Positions 35,017-45,214 of a stretch of 64,000 bases of DNA are shown here, in pieces. Under the pieces are notes generated by a model, which was not told the DNA's origin, searched no databases, and was given only the letters and a program-made list of their open reading frames with translations. The stretch is from Opitutales bacterium. GTDB lineage: Bacteria; Verrucomicrobiota; Verrucomicrobiia; Opitutales; PNEW01. How positions within the stretch are numbered: position 1 is the first letter of the stretch; every line of letters starts with the position of its first letter. The stretch spans positions 1,504,001 through 1,568,000 of the forward strand of contig CBDANS010000007.1 of assembly GCA_965197745.1 (NCBI GenBank), written 5' to 3'. The position numbers and the translations under genes were made by a program.

Positions 35017-36198
35017 GTGAATAAAAAATTATTGGATCAATTAAATGAATCAGTCCAGGTCGATCGTCTGGTCGATACCGCGGTAGCAATTGTCGGCATA
35101 CCCAGTCCCACATTAAGTGCCAGGCCCGCTGCCGATAAACTGGCAGAAATATTGAGCGAAGACGGCTTTGAAGTCGAGCGTCCGGAGGCTAATTGGCCTG
35201 AGTCACCAGCGGTGGTTACGCGTTATGATTCTGGACAGCCTGGAAAAACACTGCAGTTTAACGGACATTTGGATACCGTTCATTTGCCCTTTGTCGAACC
35301 CCGGGTGGAAGACGGCAAGCTGTACGGAAGTGGCGCGTCTGATATGAAAGGCGGTGTCGCCGCGATGTGTGAGGCACTCCGTATCCTTCGCGATACGGGA
35401 TTGTTGAATTCAGGTAAAATACTATTGACCGCCCATGATCACCATGAAGCCCCCTGGGGAGATGGCCGGCAAGTAAAAGCCCTGATTGATGAAGGCTATG
35501 TCGGGGACGGTGTTCTGATCCCCGAATATCTGTCTCATTGTTTGCCCGTCCTGGGTAGAGGCATGGGGATTTTCGAAGTCAGTATCACGCGGGAAGGAAT
35601 ACCGGTACACGAGGTGCAGGGAGGTTTGGAGCAGCCATCAGTGATTGCCGCCGGTGCAGAACTCATTCGCAGGTTTAGCGAGTTGGATATATCATTAACG
35701 AAACTGACTCACCCCTTAGGGACACGTGAAAGTATATTTATCGGGCAGGTAAGTTCAGGTGAAATTTATAATCAATCACCAACGGAGTTTAAACTCCAGG
35801 GCACCCGTCGGTGGCTGCCCGGAACTTCAAAAGATAAGGTTGAAAAGCAATTGCAGGATATACTTATGGAAGTGGGGCAGCTTGAGGGAATAAAAGGGGT
35901 GGGTGAATTTAATTTCCTCTTAGATCCCTATGAACTCAACCAGGATCACCCATTGTTGCCAGCTTTTCAGTCAGCTTACCAGGCAATCAAAGGTCAATCC
36001 CTTTCGCTTGGACCTAAACCCTTTTTGGATGATGGGAATAACTTTATCGCCAAAGCAGGCATTCCAGCGATCACTCATGGACCCGCTGCCATTGGGGCGC
36101 ACACCATAAATGAAGAAGTTTCGATTGACGAGCTGAAGCGGGTGGCGCTTACTTACGCATTAACCGCAATCAAATTCTGTAGTAACGACGATGAGTGA
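35017..36198 (+). CDS. M20 (ArgE/DapE-like) amidohydrolase
   Basis: FNGHLDTV, LYGSGASDMKGG, AHTINE. The usual DEE motif reads DHHE here. Confidence 0.88.
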   Translation: MNKKLLDQLNESVQVDRLVDTAVAIVGIPSPTLSARPAADKLAEILSEDGFEVERPEANWPESPAVVTRYDSGQPGKTLQFNGHLDTVHLPFVEPRVEDGKLYGSGASDMKGGVAAMCEALRILRDTGLLNSGKILLTAHDHHEAPWGDGRQVKALIDEGYVGDGVLIPEYLSHCLPVLGRGMGIFEVSITREGIPVHEVQGGLEQPSVIAAGAELIRRFSELDISLTKLTHPLGTRESIFIGQVSSGEIYNQSPTEFKLQGTRRWLPGTSKDKVEKQLQDILMEVGQLEGIKGVGEFNFLLDPYELNQDHPLLPAFQSAYQAIKGQSLSLGPKPFLDDGNNFIAKAGIPAITHGPAAIGAHTINEEVSIDELKRVALTYALTAIKFCSNDDE

Positions 36199-37558
36199 TA
36201 TCATTTCTGAAAAACAAACCCTCGAAGAACGGTATCTGCGGCAGATTTTTATCCGCGATCAGATGACCGAGTTTGTTAAGGAACCATTTGTAATGAGTGG
36301 TTCTGATGGCGTTTATTATACGGATATTGATGGGAAACGCTACCTTGATGGTATTGCAGGAATCTTTGTCGCTTCAGTGGGCCATAATAACCGACGGGTG
36401 ATTGATGCGATAAAAGACCAGTTGGACAAAATGTCTTTTGCCCCGATCATGCACGGAACGAATGCATTAGCGGTTCAATTAGCCAATATGCTGGCAGAAA
36501 TTGCCCCCGGTGATTTAAGTGCGGTAAAATTTTGCAGTGGCGGAGCCGAAGCAAACGAAACCGCTTTTAAAATGGCGCGCCAGTATCATAAACTCAGTGG
36601 AAATCCTAACAAGTATAAGATTATCTCGCGCTACCATTCCTGGCATGGGGGCACAATGGGGTCCTTATCGGCGTCCGGATTAACCTCACGTCGTGTTGAC
36701 TCCGAGCCACTGGCAGCAGGTTTTGTTCATGTCTTTCCTCCTTACTGCTATCGCTGTCCCTTTGGTAAAGAATACCCCAGTTGTAATATTACCTGCGCCG
36801 GACTGATCGAGGACACAATCATTATGGAAGATCCGGATACCGTCGCTGCCGTAATTGTTGAACCGATTGGGCATACCGGTGGCATCATGGATCCTCCACC
36901 AGAGTATCTGCCCCTATTACGCGAATTTTGCGACAGGCATAACGTGCTTCTGATTTTTGATGAAATAATTACCGGGATAGGGCGCACCGGAGAAATGTTC
37001 GCCGCTGATACATTTGGTGTTGTCCCTGATTTGATTTGTTTGGGGAAGGGATTGTCGGGGGGATACATGCCTCTATCCGCGGTTCTTTGTCGAAGACCCA
37101 TCGCTGATAAATTCTGGGGCGATAAGGAAACAAATCCCGGCTTTGTCTCGGGACATACTTATGAAGGTAATCCCATTGCCTGTGCTGCAGGATTGGCGAC
37201 GTTAACGGAAATTATTGAAAAGGATTTATGCGCAAACGCACGTAAGGTGGGCAGCCATTTACGCCAAGGTCTGGAGGGACTTCGCAAGCATGGAATCATC
37301 GGGGACATTCGAGGGAAAGGAATGTTTTTTGGTGTAGAATTTGTCCGTGATCCTGTGACTAAAGAAAAATTCTCAGATGATATTCCGATTTCCACCCTTA
37401 TTGGGAAACGGGCTTTAGCAAAAGGTCTCCTGTTGCGGTATGACCCGCATTGGATGTCATTGGGACCACCCTTAATCCTGACGGAAGAGCAAGCTGATGA
37501 ACTTGTTTCCATTTTAGACGAAAGCATCACCGAAGTGTTGCAGGAAATAAATAATTAG
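36191..37558 (+). CDS. Class III PLP-dependent aminotransferase
   Basis: SGGAEANE, SWHGGT, LIFDEIITGIGRTG, LGKGLSGG, GHTYEGNP; overlaps the M20 gene by 8 bp. Confidence 0.93.
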   Translation: MSDIISEKQTLEERYLRQIFIRDQMTEFVKEPFVMSGSDGVYYTDIDGKRYLDGIAGIFVASVGHNNRRVIDAIKDQLDKMSFAPIMHGTNALAVQLANMLAEIAPGDLSAVKFCSGGAEANETAFKMARQYHKLSGNPNKYKIISRYHSWHGGTMGSLSASGLTSRRVDSEPLAAGFVHVFPPYCYRCPFGKEYPSCNITCAGLIEDTIIMEDPDTVAAVIVEPIGHTGGIMDPPPEYLPLLREFCDRHNVLLIFDEIITGIGRTGEMFAADTFGVVPDLICLGKGLSGGYMPLSAVLCRRPIADKFWGDKETNPGFVSGHTYEGNPIACAAGLATLTEIIEKDLCANARKVGSHLRQGLEGLRKHGIIGDIRGKGMFFGVEFVRDPVTKEKFSDDIPISTLIGKRALAKGLLLRYDPHWMSLGPPLILTEEQADELVSILDESITEVLQEINN

Positions 37559-37587
37559 AGCGGCAGTCCGACATTTATAAATATCCG

Positions 37588-37782
37588 GAGGGCGACGGCT
37601 GATCGTGGCCTTAACAACAAAGAGGTGGAGCGGGCTGCCTGACGGCCATAGCGTAACACTGCACAGCGACGGCTGTTCCCCAGCACGCTATGTTTAAATA
37701 ATGAATAACGGTTAACGCGCTACAGCACCGCGTTCCACATGATATTGATAAATATTTGGAGGGCCACGCTCCGTCGTGGCCG
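37588..37782. repeat. Mosaic (BIME-like) REP cluster, left of GIY-YIG cassette 1
   Basis: ggagggcgacggctgatcgtggcc; a GTGG-REP with nested insert; acgcgctacagcaccgcgttccac; ggagggccacgctccgtcgtggccg. Segment 37624-37782 is a direct repeat of 38374-38494. Confidence 0.8.
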
Positions 37783-37876
37783 TAGCGTATTAGTGGAAAC
37801 GGGGCAATTTGCCGCTATGCGTAAGTTCAAATAAATAACAACAAGATGCACAATAGATACAAGCTCATGCCCCTTT

Positions 37877-38338
37877 TGTCATTGCGAGGAGTAATACGAC
37901 GCGGCTACCGAGTTCAGCATCTGCGGGACGACATCTTCCATTCCAGAAATATGGGATTAACCAATATCCCATATAAACCGATTATAAATATGTGCGCACA
38001 ATATATTACGTTTATATCCTCACCAATAAACGTAATGGAACACTTTACACAGGAGTCACTCGCAGTTTATTACGTCGCTTATGGGAGCATAAAAATAAAT
38101 TAAAGGTGGGGTTCACCAAGAATTACGATATTCATAGACTGGTATATCACGAATCCTTTTACGATATTGAAAATGCGATTCTACGTGAAAAGCAAATCAA
38201 AGCCGGTTCGAGAAAAAGGAAAATTGCCTTAATTGAAAAAGAGAACCCTTTTTGGAAAGATCTGAGCCGAGATTGGTATTCGTAAGAACAATGACTATTC
38301 GCCTGGATTGCTTCGTTGCATCACTCCTCGCAATGACA
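37877..38338 (+). mobile_element. 462-bp GIY-YIG nuclease cassette with perfect 15-bp TIRs, copy 1
   Basis: TGTCATTGCGAGGAG ... CTCCTCGCAATGACA. Manual alignment gives 8 mismatches to the reverse complement of 41543-42004. Confidence 0.9.
37992..38285 (+). CDS. Small stand-alone GIY-YIG nuclease (UPF0213/YhbQ-like), 97 aa
   Basis: YYVYILTNKRNGTLYTGVT..L.RR..EHK...GFT..Y...LVYHE......AI.REKQIK...R..K..LIE..NP.W.DL. Confidence 0.92.
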   Translation: MRTIYYVYILTNKRNGTLYTGVTRSLLRRLWEHKNKLKVGFTKNYDIHRLVYHESFYDIENAILREKQIKAGSRKRKIALIEKENPFWKDLSRDWYS

Positions 38339-38373
38339 AGAGTAGAGCAAAAGCGAACACTATAATTTCTCTA

Positions 38374-38552
38374 GGTGGAGCGGGCTGCCCCTAGCACGCT
38401 ATATTTAAATAATGAAGAACCTCAAACGCGGTAGAGACACCGCGTTCCACCCGACATTGATGAAAATTTGGAGGGCCACGCGTCGTCGTGGCCGCGATTC
38501 AAGGTACAGCTTATAATGGAAAATACGCGGACGCGACAACGCGCGTCCCTCC
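38374..38552. repeat. Mosaic REP cluster (GTGG doublet + GGAG doublet), right of cassette 1
   Basis: ggtggagcgggctgcccctagcacgc...acgcggtagagacaccgcgttccacc; ggagggccacgcgtcgtcgtggccg...cggacgcgacaacgcgcgtccctcc. An inverted homolog lies at 45562-45686. Confidence 0.8.
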
Positions 38553-38610
38553 ATTATTCTCATGTTCCTATTATCCTGTGTTATCTAGAACAGCCAACCT
38601 GCAAACAGCA

Positions 38611-39444
38611 TTATCGAACAGCGTGTTTGAACAGGGGTTTGGCTTTTTCCGGAAGCTTATCATAAACTTCCAGTGGCATCGGAGGGTATTGGATAACCCT
38701 CTGCTTGGGGTCATCATTAACAATTTTCATTTCTGTCGATCCTGGTATATATATATTCTGGTTCATCCACCAGGGCGCGTAACGGGCAACCATGGAGATA
38801 CGGGGCTCATCCGTTTTATTTGCCCCGCTCGCATGCCACATGCGACTGTCAAAAGCGAGGACGCTACCCTCAGATCCGGTCACCTGTATTTCATCGGGAA
38901 AAGGATCTAAAGTTGGTTCTTCACCATAGGAAGGATTTGTGTCTCGCTTATGGCTGCGCGGCACGAGGTGGGTTCCACCGTTATCCTCCCTAAAGGGGGA
39001 CATCATCCAGATTGTGGTTATGGTCATTAAAATTGTATCAGGGTAGGGGCTTTCAATATGCCCCGCATAGTTTCCTGCGAAAGGTTGATCCCCATGCCAC
39101 TCCCTACGATCACTGCCTGGTATATTATTCGTGGTTGAAGTGGCACAAACGCGAAAATGAGGGCCGAATAAATTTTCTATCAAGGAGGTCATTCTGGAAT
39201 CAGCGAGATATTCGGCAAAGGACGGAATATAATTTATGGAAGATGCGCAATATAAGGTATATCCGTTAGTAACTCGGGTGAACGGTTTGTTTTCGGGTTC
39301 ACCCTGTCCGATCGTGATCAGTTCGTCTCTAATAGGAGCTATGCGATCTTCTGGTACTACATCCTCGATTATACACCAACCCTCTTCACGTATCTCTGAT
39401 GCCAATGACTCCGTTGATTTTACCTCTTGAATATTAGAACTCAT
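38611..39444 (-). CDS. PhyH-family Fe(II)/2OG dioxygenase
   Basis: EEGWCIIEDV, WHGD (HxD), NGGTHLVPRSH, GSVLAFDSRMWHASGAN....PR. Confidence 0.9.
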   Translation of the reverse strand: MSSNIQEVKSTESLASEIREEGWCIIEDVVPEDRIAPIRDELITIGQGEPENKPFTRVTNGYTLYCASSINYIPSFAEYLADSRMTSLIENLFGPHFRVCATSTTNNIPGSDRREWHGDQPFAGNYAGHIESPYPDTILMTITTIWMMSPFREDNGGTHLVPRSHKRDTNPSYGEEPTLDPFPDEIQVTGSEGSVLAFDSRMWHASGANKTDEPRISMVARYAPWWMNQNIYIPGSTEMKIVNDDPKQRVIQYPPMPLEVYDKLPEKAKPLFKHAVR

Positions 39445-39563
39445 TGCTGGTTATTAAATTAATAATGAAAAATATTAGATCAAGAAATATTCAGAAAAAA
39501 TATATTTCTTTAAGGAGTAAAATATGAGATCGACTATTTATAATTTAAATACATAATGAATAA

Positions 39564-39594
39564 TGAGGGTTATTACCCTCAATTCGAATATAAT
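39564..39594 (+). promoter_or_regulatory. Palindromic operator TGAGGGT-N4-ACCCTCA plus TATAAT upstream of a prepilin gene
   Basis: Perfect 7-bp inverted repeat at 39564-39581; TATAAT at 39589-39594; ATG at 39606. Confidence 0.5.
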
Positions 39595-39605
39595 ACCATC
39601 TAGAT

Positions 39606-40079
39606 ATGCATACTAAGAAAATATCGGGGCTTTCGGGTTTTACTTTGGTTGAGGTCATGATCGTGGTTGTGATTATTGGTCTCCTTGCCTCGTTTGCGAT
39701 ACCCGCTTTTAATAGAACGAGGATCGAATCGAGGGGCACGGCGTTCACCAATGACTTGCGTATATTTGCCGACGCTGCAGATACTTATATGCTGGAAACC
39801 GGCGACTACCTGGAAGATTCCGGTAGTGGGCAATTGCCTACGGGGTGGGATAATTATGTTCAGGTGGATAAATGGACGGGTGGTACCCCCATCGGTGGAG
39901 TCTGGGACATGGAATTGGATTCATTTGGATTCAAAGCTGGATTGGGTGTTCATGGGCCTGATTTTACGGTCCAGCAAATGCAAAGTATCGATGATCGGTA
40001 CGATGATGGTGACCTCAATACTGGAAAATTTCGCCGCATTGCGGCCGACCGTTACTATTTTATCCTCGAGGATACCTGA
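39606..40079 (+). CDS. Prepilin-type N-terminal cleavage/methylation protein
   Basis: G|FTLVEVMIVVVIIGLLA; C-terminal IDDRYDDGDLNTGKF. Confidence 0.9.
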   Translation: MHTKKISGLSGFTLVEVMIVVVIIGLLASFAIPAFNRTRIESRGTAFTNDLRIFADAADTYMLETGDYLEDSGSGQLPTGWDNYVQVDKWTGGTPIGGVWDMELDSFGFKAGLGVHGPDFTVQQMQSIDDRYDDGDLNTGKFRRIAADRYYFILEDT

Positions 40080-40188
40080 TAACCGTTAGGAATCACTTCG
40101 TTTGTTTTGCCCATCAGGCAATAAATGCTTGTCCCACACCCAGGGGATCGCAGGATGGCCATGAATACAGTTAAACAAGTATAATCTA

Positions 40189-41439
40189 ATGCCAACTCCC
40201 GGGGACAACTTCACTGAAATTAGTGCCTATCTTGGCAGGCAAGAAGGCACGCTGATTAAATTTCTTCAAGGTCTGATACGAATGCCAACCGTAAATCCCC
40301 CCGGTGATTGCTATACAAATTGCGTAACGGTTCTTGAAAAAAAACTTCATGCCATTGGGATGAAAACCCAGGTCATTCGTGTGCCCTCGATTAAGCAGAG
40401 AAAAGTGACTCTTGACTTCATGAAGTATCCCCGGTTTAACTTGATTGGGAGATGGAATACCGGGGCCACGAAAACACTACACTTTAATGCTCATTATGAT
40501 GTGGTCCCTGTCTCTGGTAATTGGAAATATGGGCCATTTGAACCGAGGGTAAAAGACGGGTGGATTTATGGGCGGGGGTCAGCGGATATGAAAGGCGCCA
40601 TAGCCGCCTGTTGTCTTGCCATTCAAGCCATGAAGCGATGCAGGAGAATTCCAGGGGTCAATGTCGAGGTGTCCTTCACTGCGGATGAAGAAACAGGGGG
40701 CGAATTAGGAGCCGGGTATATAGTCCAGGAAAAGCTGGTAAATCCTGATTATGCGGTGGTGTGTGAGGGCGGCAGTGGAAGAACTGTCGGTTGCGGTCAT
40801 AATGGGGTTCTCTGGTTGGAGTCGATGATAACCGGGAAATCCGCGCATGCCGCGCACCCGCATAATGGAATTAATGCTTTTGAAAACATGTCAGCGCTGG
40901 TCGTAAAATTACACCGGTGGAAAAAAATCCTGCAAAAACGCAGCTTCGTCGGTCCCAATGGAAATAAAAAGCATCCCACCATTAACATAGGAGGCGTATT
41001 CGGGGTTGGTTCAGGGGCGAAAGTAAATACGGTACCTTCTCACGCGAGTTTCACTATTGATAGACGCATTATTCCCAGTGATTCATTTCGCGAATCGGAA
41101 AGAGAAATTAAAAGTGTGATCAATGAAGCCAAAAGGCAGATACCGGATCTTCGCGTGAAAACATCACGCCTTTTAGCCATTAAACCCTGTCTCGTTGATC
41201 ACGAAAGTTACTTTCCCCAAACGGTTGCCCATGCGGTCCGTTCTGTCCTTGGTGGCCGTACTCAATTTGGGGTATGTGACGGGTTTACCGATATGAACCG
41301 CTTTGTTACAGGTAAAATTCCGACCGTGGGCTATGGTCCTGGGGGTAAGAATATTCACAGTGTCGACGAGCGCGCAAAAGTGCGTGATATACTGCAAACG
41401 GCCAGGGTTTATGCAAAACTGATGCTCTCACTTAAATAG
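40189..41439 (+). CDS. M20 ArgE/DapE family deacylase
   Basis: TVNPPG, FNAHYDVVP, YGRGSADMKG, ADEETGG, GKSAHA, IHSVDE. Confidence 0.92.
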   Translation: MPTPGDNFTEISAYLGRQEGTLIKFLQGLIRMPTVNPPGDCYTNCVTVLEKKLHAIGMKTQVIRVPSIKQRKVTLDFMKYPRFNLIGRWNTGATKTLHFNAHYDVVPVSGNWKYGPFEPRVKDGWIYGRGSADMKGAIAACCLAIQAMKRCRRIPGVNVEVSFTADEETGGELGAGYIVQEKLVNPDYAVVCEGGSGRTVGCGHNGVLWLESMITGKSAHAAHPHNGINAFENMSALVVKLHRWKKILQKRSFVGPNGNKKHPTINIGGVFGVGSGAKVNTVPSHASFTIDRRIIPSDSFRESEREIKSVINEAKRQIPDLRVKTSRLLAIKPCLVDHESYFPQTVAHAVRSVLGGRTQFGVCDGFTDMNRFVTGKIPTVGYGPGGKNIHSVDERAKVRDILQTARVYAKLMLSLK

Positions 41440-41542
41440 GGTGAGGGCGACGGCTGATCGTGGCCGTAACGAATAAGTTGGGTCGGAGCAATTTACCACC
41501 GTGTGTAAGTTCAAAAAAATAGCTACAAGCTAATGCACCTCT

Positions 41543-42004
41543 TGTCATTGCGAGGAGTGATGCAACGAAGCAATCCAGGCGAATAGTCATTGTTCTTACG
41601 AATACCAATCTCGGCTCAGATCTTTCCAAAAAGGGTTCTCTTTTTCAATTAAGGCAATTTTCCTTTTTCTCGAACCGGCTTTGATTTGCTTTTCACGTAG
41701 AATCGCATTTTCAATATCGTAAAAGGATTCGTGATATACCAGTCTATGAATATCGTAATTCTTGGTGAACCCCACCTTTAATTTATTTTTATGCTCCCAT
41801 AAGCGACGTAATAAACTGCGAGTGACTCCTGTGTAAAGTGTTCCATTACGTTTATTGGTGAGGATATAAACGTAATATATTTTGCGCACATATTTATAAT
41901 CGGTTTATATGGGATATTGGTTAATTCGATATTTCTGGAATGGAAGATGTCGTCCCGCAGATGCTGAACTCGGTAGCCGCGTCACGATGCTCCTCGCAAT
42001 GACA
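41543..42004 (-). mobile_element. 462-bp GIY-YIG nuclease cassette with perfect TIRs, copy 2 (inverted)
   Basis: Same length and TIRs as copy 1, with the interior reverse-complemented. Flanked by direct repeats GACGGCTGATCGTGG at ~41449 and ~42047. Confidence 0.9.
41596..41889 (-). CDS. Small stand-alone GIY-YIG nuclease, 97 aa
   Basis: Identical to 37992-38285 except T3K. Confidence 0.92.
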   Translation of the reverse strand: MRKIYYVYILTNKRNGTLYTGVTRSLLRRLWEHKNKLKVGFTKNYDIHRLVYHESFYDIENAILREKQIKAGSRKRKIALIEKENPFWKDLSRDWYS

Positions 42005-42130
42005 AGAGTAAGCAAATGCGATCAGCTAACTTCATTACCGCGGGACGACGGCTGATCGTGGTCGTTTCTAAGTTACCTGGTCCCTAATGCCTTTTAGTGG
42101 GGTCGATTTAATAAGCTCAAGTTAATTGAA

Positions 42131-42937
42131 TCAATTTAACCCTCTATAAATATCCCTAATATAGCTTTCTGTTTTCGCCTTATGATGATTCTCGGCAGTA
42201 TTAATACCCGATTTTATTTTATTCAGAGAAATTATCATTTCATCGAAAGTTTTTTGAGCTTCAGCGATACCCGACCCCTCCTGTTCCTGAATTAATTGCC
42301 GGTAATAGGACCCCAGTTTTAACTGGGGGAGAGAAATTTCATGATATGGGGTGCCACGGACCAGTGTATTGTGATTTCTCGTTAGGGAGTTAAAAATTTG
42401 TTCTTCATCTTCTACAGCCTCAGCGGACCTGAATGCTTTGTCTATTTCCCGTTGTGCCGTATCTGAAAACTCCTGATTCTCGCTATCGTAGGCGGCGGTC
42501 ATCGTATTTCTCGCACTGCCTATATATTGGCTTAAATATTTTATTTTAGTCCTGATACTATTGAAGCTTTCATTGACATCAGTATAAATCACTTCGATCG
42601 CTTCCCCTTTTTGAAATGATTCATCAGACTTGGCTAAAGCCATCTCTATTTCGAGATCGATTCGTTTTCTCAGGTTTCTGGCCTTCCTGATAATCGTAGC
42701 AAGTATCCTTTTTTCTTCCCTAAGCTGTCGCTTGAGTTCTTCGATATTCCCATCCTTATTCTTCCTGGATTTTGATTTGCCAAGCAATAATTCAAGTATG
42801 GTGTACGAAGTTTCTGACTTTTGTAGATGAAGGTTCAAACCCTCTATAGCCTGAATCTGCATCTCCCTGGCCATATTAAGCTTAGATCGTTCACTGATAA
42901 GCGATCTGATATCATCTGGAATGGTTAAAGTATTCAT
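42131..42937 (-). CDS. Hypothetical coiled-coil protein
   Basis: 268-aa E/K/R/L-rich helical ORF with no recognised motif. Confidence 0.6.
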   Translation of the reverse strand: MNTLTIPDDIRSLISERSKLNMAREMQIQAIEGLNLHLQKSETSYTILELLLGKSKSRKNKDGNIEELKRQLREEKRILATIIRKARNLRKRIDLEIEMALAKSDESFQKGEAIEVIYTDVNESFNSIRTKIKYLSQYIGSARNTMTAAYDSENQEFSDTAQREIDKAFRSAEAVEDEEQIFNSLTRNHNTLVRGTPYHEISLPQLKLGSYYRQLIQEQEGSGIAEAQKTFDEMIISLNKIKSGINTAENHHKAKTESYIRDIYRGLN

Positions 42938-43100
42938 TAATATAAATCCCTGACCCGTTCAATAATGGTAATATTACGGCCGTCTGATACTCCAGTGAAA
43001 GTTAGTAAAGTATTTTATTTTTGTAAGTAAAAAATACTTAAAAACTACGTCAAGTTTTCTTGAATATTATATTACTAGTGCAGTCGTCAAAATGACTGAT

Positions 43101-43559
43101 TTATTCCAATTGATAGTCATAGTTCATAGCCCCTTTTTTCTGGAATCGCCCGGAGGACAAGTCTCCATCATCTAATAATTGATCAATCTGCACCATGACT
43201 TCCAGAGAGGCGTTTGGTTTTAATAACCTTAATGTAGATTGAGCTTTCTGCCACATATAGCCACTGCCCGGCCCGGCACTGGTCGTGTAATTCGCCGGCA
43301 GAAAATCTTCCATTCCCAAGGGAATTTGGTTTAATCCGGCGGTCGGGGGCCAATCCCCGAATTCTGTGTTATAAAGTTCAAAGGCATCGGTATATTTCAC
43401 AAGATTGTTCACCAAAACCGTAGAATGAGATTTTTCGTTCGATTTATTGGCTGCCGGTATTAAAAGTGCCGCCAGGATTCCCACGATTACAACCACAACC
43501 ATGATCTCCACGAGGGTGAACCCTTTTGCTCGGTAGAGAGATTTTTCCTGAGTGATCAT
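43101..43559 (-). CDS. Prepilin-type N-terminal cleavage/methylation protein
   Basis: G|FTLVEIMVVVVIVGILA; IDQLLDDGDLSSGRF; starts 36 bp after the PEP-CTERM gene. Confidence 0.9.
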   Translation of the reverse strand: MITQEKSLYRAKGFTLVEIMVVVVIVGILAALLIPAANKSNEKSHSTVLVNNLVKYTDAFELYNTEFGDWPPTAGLNQIPLGMEDFLPANYTTSAGPGSGYMWQKAQSTLRLLKPNASLEVMVQIDQLLDDGDLSSGRFQKKGAMNYDYQLE

Positions 43560-43595
43560 TGACAGGAAACTAACAGATATTAACTGAACGACAAT

Positions 43596-45214
43596 TTATA
43601 TTTTACGCCTGAAACGGTAAAATACAAGTGCGCAGCCCAGTCCCATCAGGGCCCAGGTGGAAGGTTCAGGGACGACAGCAAGGTCGAGAGAATTGAGATT
43701 GTAGACAGGCTGGAAAAATAAATTACCGGAAAAGCCAAATTCATCATCGACGGAACCAAACTGTCCTGATCGCGTCCCTGTCCAGGTGAGGACCGTAAAG
43801 GTATCACCTAATACCGGTAAACTCCCTGAGAGGATGATGTCCAGAGAACCGCTCGAGAACGACAGCTCACCGTCAATATTTAAGATACTCCAATCAACCG
43901 TATCCTCAATAGAGACTTCAAAAATACTGCCAGCCGCAAAATGGAGATCAAGATCGACATCAAGAGGGTGTAGGGTATCAGGCGCGATCGTTCCAAAGTT
44001 GCTGAAAGTGGACCCACCGGAAGGATAGACATGTCCAGCCCCTTTAAATTGACCATGGTTAATGACATCATTGGTGATCAATTCCGATTGCCCAGAGTAA
44101 TCAGTGAACATTTCTACGATCCCGTTTGTCCCAACTGTTACGGAATCAGCTGAAAGAACCCCATCGTAATGAATGCGAATCGTATTGGTCGGCCCCGTAG
44201 GGCCAATCGTCCCTACGAAGGCATTACTGGCGGTAACTAAACCCCCGGAAGATCCCCCCCATATATATCCATTATACCCTGGCCGGAAAGGCCCACCTGC
44301 AGATCACCGGCCACTCCTAGAATGGCATTGTCATACACCTCAATAGTTCCGTCACTGCCGGAATTAAAACCAACAATCAAATCACCACCGACATCAACTC
44401 CCGCCGTATCCGTATTGCCCCCTATTGTAAGATCACCGCTACCACTACCGCCCACGACAAAGCGTCCATCGATGTCAAGTTGTGTATCGCCAGTCTCGAC
44501 TGAAGCACTAACTACGATTTCACCGAAACTGCCAGAATTAACCCCAATGATTGCATCAAAACTGCTGTTGTTAACGGTCCCCGTCGCTCCATCGGTAATT
44601 TCGAGGAGACCATCACCCTGGGAGTTTATGCCTACATTCAGGTCCAGGGTAGTGAACTGGGATCCGCTTCCCTCGACAAATAATCTACCGGGGCCGTTTT
44701 TCCCGATTTCTGAAAGGTTGGAGATATTGAGTATTCCCCCTGAATCTATAGTGAGGATACTTTCTGCGCCCAGTCCCGCGCTGTTGGTCGTCAACAGGTC
44801 TACCGCATTGACCGTCCCATCCTGGATTCCCAGATCGGTATCATCATTCCCTCCCTGCGAAAGATCAAAGTCTGAAAGAATATTTAAGGTATTCAGGTTA
44901 AGATTAAAAATCAGCGTATCATCCAGTATTTTGAGAACATTAACAGTTTGAGCCGTAGTAAAACTGACCGTATAACCTGTAGAACCGATATCGAATTTCG
45001 CGGTGTCACCGGAACCTGGAGCGATTCCTCCCGTCCATTTACTGTCATCGTCGAAATTACCACTTACGTCACTGTCCCAGGCGATCACCCCAGCCCATGT
45101 TGGCAGTGGGATTATGCCTATTACTAAAAAGGCAGCTGTTGCGGTCAGGAATTTTATATTAAATTTAATACAATCCGAAATGGCTCGATATAAAAACGGC
45201 ATGAGTTGGTTCAT
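43596..45214 (-). pseudogene. PEP-CTERM surface protein with T5SS/PEP-CTERM-associated-like repeats, frameshifted at a G7 tract (44254-44260)
   Basis: C-terminus VPEPSTWALMGLGCALVFYRFRRKI. One extra G joins MDIYGG to GSSGGLVTASNAFVG...IVEMFTDY, giving 540 codons. Confidence 0.85.

Follow-up and report, generated by a model that had tools for sequence, protein, structure and literature searches.

Inverted copies of a predicted Ssn-type nuclease cassette between directly repeated flanks in an Opitutales genome

Ssn nucleases and related repeat systems

The Ssn proteins are single-domain GIY-YIG nucleases of about 94 amino acids, a family described only in 2025 (Chenal et al., Nat Commun 2025, PMC11893778). 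Ssn proteins are reported to bind an oriented hairpin repeat, called NTS or SRM, and to cleave single-stranded DNA just upstream of it; SsnA of Neisseria meningitidis reportedly cuts about 3 nt upstream of the repeat, and the characterised proteins do not cut double-stranded DNA. The NTS (CGTCATTCCCGCGMAVGCGGGAATCYRG) has the layout CGTCATT, stem-loop, GGGAATCYRG, and it is common for an ssn gene to have the repeat on either side in inverted orientation. This repeat-gene-repeat layout was likened to an insertion sequence, and no movement, exchange or reorientation of it was shown (PMC11893778). The locus described here bears on whether and how such units move. It lies in a 64,000-nt stretch (the window, to which all positions refer) of a 4.45-Mb Opitutales genome (G000), where two copies of such a cassette, A and B, are found in opposite orientations between flanks that run in the same direction. 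Three genomes of the same family and a different genus (G001, G002 and G003) served for comparison.

Judged by its domain and layout, what a preliminary description of this DNA had called a nuclease cassette is an Ssn-type predicted single-strand nuclease gene between inverted SRM copies, and as such an example of the published system. The gene is intergenic and is the only open reading frame in the cassette; no transposase of a known class was found there. In both copies the protein matches PF01541 over residues 5-77 (E 3.2e-13) with no further domain, and the residues Y8, Y19, G21, R29, H33, E66 and N85 are invariant across 12 aligned sequences. A DNA-binding domain typical of homing endonucleases was not found in the 97-aa protein. 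The closest solved structure is that of UPF0213 protein BH0048 (1zg2, E 1.5e-5), and NCBIfam gave no match above cut-off (TIGR01453, 20 bits against a cut-off of 56). Scans for sigma-70 promoters and terminators found nothing within either cassette, and an Rfam scan of 36000-44000 gave no match at E <= 1.

At least 572 relatives of the protein were confirmed among at least 594 candidate stretches. The best 80 are 57-80% identical and come from many phyla. At loci L021-L100 the protein is 57-69% identical across Opitutales, Cyanobacteria, Patescibacteria, Dehalococcoidia, Rickettsiaceae, Bacteroidota and others, and the motif REKQIKAGSR is invariant there; conservation this unusually high for such a taxonomic spread suggests that the gene may be transferred horizontally. 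Membership of the Ssn family has been judged by criteria that include the cd10448 clade or SsnA homology at a tblastn E below 1e-10 (PMC11893778). The host genomes of the relatives at 57% (L055, Mastigocoleus testarum BC008) and 65% (L049, Pelotomaculum terephthalicicum JT) are listed in Supplementary Data 4 of that report with an SsnA homologue and a cd10448 score above 100, possibly for these very genes, so that support for cd10448 membership is indirect. The SRM enrichment given there for these two genomes is only 1.2-1.6 fold (PMC11893778), as would fit a type of repeat missed by the published motif.

Like the described systems (PMC11893778), the Opitutales cassettes combine a single-domain GIY-YIG protein of about 95 amino acids, a gene between inverted repeats and many dispersed gene-less copies, and the repeat consists of a GTCATT tag, a hairpin and a AATCCAGG tag, ending in AATCC(A/R)G. 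In contrast to those systems, the repeats are unmatched by the published degenerate motif and the hairpin is bipartite, made of a 5-bp outer stem and either a variable inner hairpin or an extra module of 27-34 nt. Type-1 termini have the layout ttGTCATTGC-GAGG-(variable hairpin)-GACGMRGCAATCCAGG, and in type-2 termini GCAAT is replaced by the extra module (...GCTACCGAG-hairpin-GACATCTTCCATTCCAGG). The two termini of a cassette are inverted to one another, with 19 nt perfect and 40 nt at 78%, and in the G000 cassettes the gene is bracketed by inverted copies on both sides. Among the best 80 relatives, the sequence GTCATTGCGAG (at most 2 mismatches) is inverted around the gene on both sides in 69, on one side in 9 and on neither in 2. 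The outer stem covaries in 80 copies (63 ATTGC/GCAAT, 17 ATCGC/GCGAT, none mixed), a supportive rather than independent line of evidence as the copies share descent, and 20 of 80 repeats fold with z <= -2.

The G000 genome contains 166 termini with at most one mismatch, where chance would give about 20 for a 12-mer. Close inverted pairs of termini, or gene-less doublets, number 45 and span 48-464 bp; purpose-made patterns found 80 type-1 and 30 type-2 repeats. Exact termini numbered 59 in G001 and 85 in G002, with none for a reversed control. The published degenerate SRM motif had 16 matches in G000, which is the chance level, and none in the two cassettes; on contig C7 it had 12 matches compared with 8-12 in five shuffles. 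The SRM found here is a repeat variant that escapes the published search motif, and the spread of GTCATTGCGAG across many phyla makes this a widespread one.

Some doublets vary in form. Extended inverted outer arms occur in 6 of the 45 (up to 57 nt at about 70%) and were rejected as a general trait of the family, the other 39 being without them. Hairpin-within-hairpin doublets in long outer arms include C6:994601-994882, C7:1151680-1151924 and C7:483522-483957 of G000, several with CTTCGTC repeats. The paralogous doublets C6:1103752-1103852 and C7:1497253-1497380 have nearly identical flanks; what sets them apart is a 27-nt module within the terminal repeat, which converts a type-1 end to type-2.

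Several other known systems resemble this one in part. REP and REPIN sequences with their RAYT genes (IS200/IS605-like HUH enzymes) also form dispersed intergenic hairpin repeats, often as inverted doublets, and there too the gene of an associated nuclease, present once or a few times, is bracketed by repeats; the enzyme here is a GIY-YIG nuclease, not HUH. The GIY-YIG fold forms no covalent DNA intermediate and hence, unlike HUH enzymes, does not cut and rejoin alone. MITEs (miniature inverted-repeat transposable elements) and their parent insertion sequences, such as Correia, RUP and Nezha, have terminal inverted repeats and gene-less short derivatives, and share with the cassette both features as well as presence or absence among related genomes. 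They differ in that the Opitutales cassette has neither a target duplication nor a known-class transposase, and in that the inserted block exceeds the repeat-bounded unit in one clean filled/empty comparison. GIY-YIG homing endonucleases of the I-TevI type join the nuclease domain to a DNA-binding domain, and their genes lie in introns or next to a cleavable empty allele; the protein here is a single 97-aa domain whose gene is intergenic, and no empty allele was found among G001-G003, the JGI metagenome contigs and the GTDB species genomes. The tufA and tufB genes of enterobacteria are inverted duplicates that undergo concerted evolution by gene conversion in mosaic tracts. Here too inverted copies stay near-identical, with mosaic tracts, while the surrounding DNA diverges, although the block of homology is a selfish-looking 470-nt cassette whose limits are its own terminal repeats. 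A full-text literature search for GTCATTGCGAG or its complement gave only unrelated primers among the matches listed, a search from 2025 on for Ssn GIY-YIG single-strand nucleases with repeats gave nothing relevant beyond PMC11893778, and a search for GIY-YIG, inverted repeats and mobile elements in bacterial genomes gave no paper on the element as far as titles and abstracts show.

Oppositely oriented cores between directly repeated flanks

The features on which the comparison of the two copies depends are as follows.

37783..37872, + strand: left flank of A (L_A), direct-orientation homologue of L_B
37873..38342, + strand: core A, the near-identical block of SRM, ssn and SRM plus 5 nt per side
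37878..37946, + strand: upstream terminal repeat of copy A, type-2 SRM (GTCATTGCGAGG...GCTACCGAG...CATTCCAG), with a patch at 37892-37897 holding 5 differences from B
37992..38285, + strand: ssn gene, copy A; begins with GTG and encodes 97 aa, with one GIY-YIG domain whose catalytic residues are intact
38302..38337, - strand: downstream terminal repeat of copy A, type-1 SRM (GTCATTGC...GCAATCCAGG on the minus strand)
38343..38372, + strand: right flank of A (R_A), its first 18-20 nt homologous to R_B
41467..41538, + strand: left flank of B (L_B), homologue of L_A
41539..42008, - strand: core B, reverse complement of core A
41544..41579, + strand: type-1 SRM of copy B, on the downstream side of the gene
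41596..41889, - strand: ssn gene, copy B; encodes 97 aa, with K at residue 3 where copy A has T
41935..42003, - strand: type-2 SRM of copy B, on the upstream side of the gene
42009..42039, + strand: right flank of B (R_B), homologue of R_A

The cores form the 98% complementary arms of an inverted repeat of 470 nt, spaced 3.2 kb apart, with one intact 97-aa GIY-YIG gene in each. A base-by-base map revealed 9 differences between them, every one inside the first 127 nt (37873-37999), at 37875, 37892, 37894-37897, 37953, 37955 and 37999. Five of these (37892 and 37894-37897) cluster within the variable part of the upstream terminal repeat, and the one at 37999 alters residue 3 of the protein from T in A to K in B. 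The remaining 343 nt (38000-38342) are identical. Similarity drops off abruptly outside 37873 and 38342, so that the edges of the shared block lie 5 nt outside GTCATT at both ends. The block is thus a mosaic, with the upstream part at 93% and the remainder at 100%, set between flanks at 76%. A 9-bp hairpin just upstream of the ssn start is perfect in copy A (37949-37974, z -2.4), and its counterpart in copy B (41907-41932) is disrupted by two substitutions; the collapsed core of one public run (X3) has the A-type letters there.

It had been claimed that these interiors point in opposite directions between flanks of the same orientation and that the flanks are the more diverged, and both points were borne out. 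The left flanks are direct repeats, aligning over 97 nt at 73% and 61 nt at 80%, and their local alignment scores 50, whereas none of 2000 shuffles scored above 30; in reverse orientation the flanks are at chance (score 13, p 0.44). The first 35 nt or so consist of a high-copy REP-like hairpin. The other 80 nt or so have only each other as a match in G000 (76.5% over 81 nt, E 7e-10), and in further searches over G000-G003 only A matched B (E 1.3e-5 and 1.6e-5). As a degenerate 28-mer, the left flank drew no hit from either the JGI metagenome contigs or the GTDB species genomes. The right flanks have 18 nt in common immediately outside the terminus, also in direct orientation (score 19, p 0.006), a short match that is anchored by its position. 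A short palindrome, CTCTT / AAGAG, lies just beyond the termini. No target-site duplication was seen, the six bases outside the block being atgccc / tagagc in A and atgcac / taagca in B. The idea that L is a decayed arm of the terminus was ruled out, since L has no similarity to reverse-complemented R.

The flanks at about 76%, against 98% for the cores, have diverged about as far as unrelated cassette lineages. Among eight full-length cassettes of three genomes, all pairs other than A/B are 74-81% identical, and hence there is no genome-wide homogenisation of cassettes.

The arrangement is also supported by public reads. Seven public runs contain the stretch, and Logan contigs of four of them, from three studies, covered all four junctions of flank and core without differences. 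One contig led from L_A across the A-specific patch within the core (37623-37927), one from the core end into R_A (38313-38551), one from the intervening DNA through L_B into the core (39156-41568) and one from the B-specific patch into R_B (41954-42400). At two junctions the contig reaches only 30 letters into the core, as expected of k-mer contigs at a repeat edge. A core contig (37898-38342) had about twice the depth of unique DNA. No joint that skips a whole core was found among the joints listed, in contigs that are short, in which rare forms are dropped and which are blind to a 3.2-kb inversion in some cells; the sides of joints such as 37783>38528 and 41617>38296 are short, at 22-42 letters, and these joints are compatible with other copies of REP or SRM. 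The contig that leads out of L_A in run X3 ceases to match at 37892, and the double-depth core contig of that run combines the B-type patch with A-type letters at 41926 and 41928, which hints that the mosaic of variable core positions differs between samples.

Proposed exchange at repeat termini and its alternatives

Site B is empty in all three relatives, without L or R sequence, and site A is empty in two of them, G001 (where only a dispersed repeat, R2, is found) and G003. In G002, site A holds a cassette at 85% identity, oriented as in A and without L or R. Thus the cassette with its L and R flanks reached both sites in the G000 lineage. Besides the two close intact copies, G000 has only one ssn copy at 77%, whose match contains one TAA, and three that are broken; in G001 there are three copies (one broken) and in G002 one. 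None of the four ssn sites of G001 and G002 is common to both, though their flanks are 95-98% identical; locus L016 of G001 (857 kb) was left out of the comparison with G002, the region being rearranged. In the sole clean filled/empty pair (L018 of G001 and L020 of G002) the extra DNA of about 670 nt comprises the repeat-bounded unit together with about 150 and 100 nt.

Orientation could be followed at other sites as well. The comparison of G001 with G002 involved 43 and 56 clusters of terminal-repeat sites, with 20 G001 loci having a flank-homologous partner in G002; 8 of these orthologous pairs were informative for orientation and none was flipped. Six paralogous pairs in G000 with clearly homologous flanks (four with both flanks strongly alike, two with one) were not flipped either. 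Four weaker pairs scored higher for a flip and were counted as uninformative: three involve C6:994601, whose inverted-arm flanks make the flank orientation ambiguous, and the fourth (C6:595857/C6:596296) had near-equal scores. The screen used 68-nt windows, in which the A/B pair itself falls below the flank threshold. Flips are therefore rare, A/B being the only one seen against none in 14 other informative pairs.

Module swaps that break within the conserved SRM terminus do occur between the sister species G001 and G002. In the pair L114/L145 the left flank is 91% identical and the 14-nt terminus agrees at 12 of 14 positions, and the following 60 nt belong to a different repeat variant (56%). 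L137/L180 and L115/L144 have retained the interior (97% and 93%) next to 100 nt that differ (50-69%), and L109/L162 have far flanks that are 94-98% identical around unlike interiors (37%). In this lineage, SRM termini act as exchange junctions. A further pair, L103 of G001 and L175 of G002, differs by a 168-nt block with one terminal repeat, present in G002, absent from G001 and bounded by GCCC microhomology, which looks like a deletion that turned a doublet into a solo repeat.

From these observations we tentatively favour the explanation that one core was overwritten by the other, and then kept alike with it, through recombination bounded by the symmetric SRM ends. A larger block, made of REP hairpin, L, cassette and R, would have come to both sites in the G000 lineage after the split from the sister genus, and divergence of its flanks to about 76% identity would have followed. 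At a later time the core between the SRMs of one locus would have been overwritten by that of the other, with recombination starting and ending in the SRM termini. As the termini are inverted repeats of each other and read alike from either end, either orientation is allowed, and the incoming core may have been laid down reversed. Gene conversion between the inverted cores would since then have kept them alike in patches. Such conversion cannot enter the flanks, because antiparallel-paired cores end their homology at the termini, and flanks more diverged than interiors would follow. The preliminary description had held that recombination between the two copies would not produce this arrangement; simple duplication indeed cannot, but gene conversion between inverted cores does explain the contrast in divergence. 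The trigger would likely have been nicking by the predicted Ssn protein on single-stranded DNA, a few nt outside each SRM; by analogy with SsnA (PMC11893778), the predicted cut would lie no more than one or two nucleotides from the block edges. Identity over 343 nt beside 9 differences in 127 nt, with no similarity past the termini, supports the exchange of a block.

A number of points weigh against this explanation. The five clustered differences at 37892-37897 lie inside the terminus, and a clean swap at the outermost 16-19 nt is therefore insufficient; to explain them takes a further event, or else a crossover deeper inside. The near-identical core is confined to one pair, despite some 45 other SRM doublets as possible recipients, and no other flip was met among the 8 orthologous and 6 clear paralogous pairs. 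Neither a donor-recipient intermediate nor an empty L-R site was found, and both terminal repeats of the A/B cassettes fold weakly alone. The single-strand nuclease activity of the G000 protein is a prediction by analogy with its characterised relatives, and the arrival of the larger block at two sites is unexplained.

By weight, the rival explanations rank as in-place inversion, homing into pads, flank swap, assembly error and programmed switch. The first of these, that the whole of L, cassette and R was duplicated and one core then inverted through its own terminal repeats of 19 nt (40 nt imperfect), with conversion since, is unlikely but the most serious. Conversion tracts of different ages would account for the identity tiers of 76%, 93% and 100%, the different mosaic hinted at in run X3 would fit, and no resident SRM element would be needed at the recipient site. 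The perfect homology is however very short for inverting, the 14 other informative pairs gave no flip, and the contigs of the four runs, blind as they are to rare forms, contain the reference junctions only. It would also require homogenisation to have continued throughout the 24% divergence of the flanks, and the other cassettes of the same genomes, at 74-81%, underwent none.

A bolder form of the exchange reading, which we hold to be rather improbable, sees in the SRM-ssn-SRM unit a mobile element that is autonomous and works by a new kind of mechanism, whose own nicks outside the terminal hairpins would start copying into any site with a hairpin repeat, in either orientation. If this were true, the A/B pair would be a caught example and the block limits would mark the nick sites.

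Homing into old sites, one of the two interpretations offered earlier, takes L-R as an old two-copy target whose empty copies each received the nuclease gene in a separate event, in either orientation. The direct homologous flanks on both sides of the insert, and the short palindrome just outside the termini, are what it would lead one to expect. Against it, no pre-existing landing pad came to light: L and R are found at these two loci only, and searches with the left flank met no further copy in the remainder of G000, in G001-G003, or among the JGI metagenome contigs and the GTDB species genomes. Where the orthologous sites are empty in G001-G003, they show no sign of an older empty pad, and no target duplication is visible. 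A single 97-aa domain without the DNA-binding domain of a homing endonuclease, in a family whose characterised members are reported to cut single-stranded and not double-stranded DNA (PMC11893778), speaks against classical homing in particular, and we regard this origin as improbable.

Improbable to the same degree is a swap of flanks, in which the cores once had inverted arms (L with reversed L, R with reversed R) and a reciprocal crossover between them turned round the intervening 3.2 kb; the arms, redistributed by this, would then be direct flanks on either side of inverted cores. A single crossover between inverted cores yields exactly this conversion and would account for L existing as one pair only, and long inverted outer arms do occur in the six doublets described above, though not in the other 39. 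The intervening genes, however, are ordered and oriented as in G001, G002 and G003, so that the armed state needs an earlier, unexplained inversion and then a second one.

That assembly or polishing gave one core the wrong orientation, or made it a copy of the other, is very improbable: a near-identical inverted repeat of 470 nt is a classic trap for assemblers, but the four junctions, two of them with copy-specific letters, recur without differences in the four runs, the gene order agrees with that of the relatives and the assembled contig is 2.1 Mb long. Least credible of all is a programmed switch worked by a site-specific recombinase, which would fit a segment bounded by inverted repeats that occurs in both orientations relative to similar flanks, for there is no recombinase or invertase among the neighbours (aminotransferase, PhyH dioxygenase, pilin-like protein, M20 peptidase), no sigma-70-like promoter inside the cassette for a flip to redirect, and only reference junctions in the contigs. 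A standing invertible interior, the other interpretation offered earlier, therefore found no support, given also the 14 unflipped pairs; the observation behind the preliminary description is confirmed and its interpretation partly supported.

Taken with the module swaps, the locus is a natural footprint of an exchanged block that may stand in reverse between unchanged flanks, with edges 5 nt outside the terminal repeats. It narrows the models to recombination bounded by repeat termini and supplies concrete test substrates. As a system the cassette is of a known kind, and what the locus adds is circumstantial evidence for a block-wise exchange of the repeat-bounded unit.

Dispersed repeats and neighbouring genes

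Further features surround the two blocks.

37587..37610, + strand: REP-like hairpin, beta subtype (GGAGGGCGACGGCTGATCGTGGCC), of a REP family with more than 80 genome copies by blastn
37623..37757, + strand: R2 repeat, copy 1, long form; R2 is dispersed in the genome in high copy number
37758..37782, + strand: REP-like hairpin, alpha subtype
38373..38494, + strand: R2 repeat, copy 2, short form (38373-38469), then a REP-like alpha hairpin (38470-38494)
38611..41439, mixed strands: segment X between the two cores, with a PhyH-type dioxygenase (-), a prepilin-type protein (+) and an M20 peptidase (+)
41443..41465, + strand: REP-like hairpin, beta subtype, beginning 4 nt past the M20 stop codon
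42040..42063, + strand: REP-like hairpin, beta-like, in direct orientation relative to the copy at 41443

The REP-like hairpins occur in a GGAGGGCCACGC..CGTCGTGGCC form and in a subtype with a GGCTGAT loop; elsewhere in the genome, where there are more than 80 copies, they are often close inverted doublets. The five hairpins of this locus all run in one direction and bracket both blocks. The R2 repeat starts with AGGTGGAGCGGGCTGCC and ends with CACCGCGTTCCAC, and direct copies of it lie on both sides of the A block. Its first 28 nt match 28 other places in G000, and it is also present at the orthologous site A of G001 (L013, about 1631-1740).

The order of the neighbouring genes is common to G000 and G001-G003, namely aminotransferase (+), PhyH (-), pilin-like (+), M20 peptidase (+) and the next gene (-), and that of segment X agrees in order and orientation with all three relatives. 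The M20 peptidase of G000 stops a few codons before its counterparts in G001, G002 and G003 (41425-41442 compared with about 4761-4790 of L013). The B block begins directly at this stop codon, and the insertion may thus have replaced the last M20 codons. Across the PhyH gene, at 38718-39166, a second contig of 449 nt with 41 differences and similar depth was present in runs X2, X5 and X6, which indicates either another strain or a closely related paralogue.

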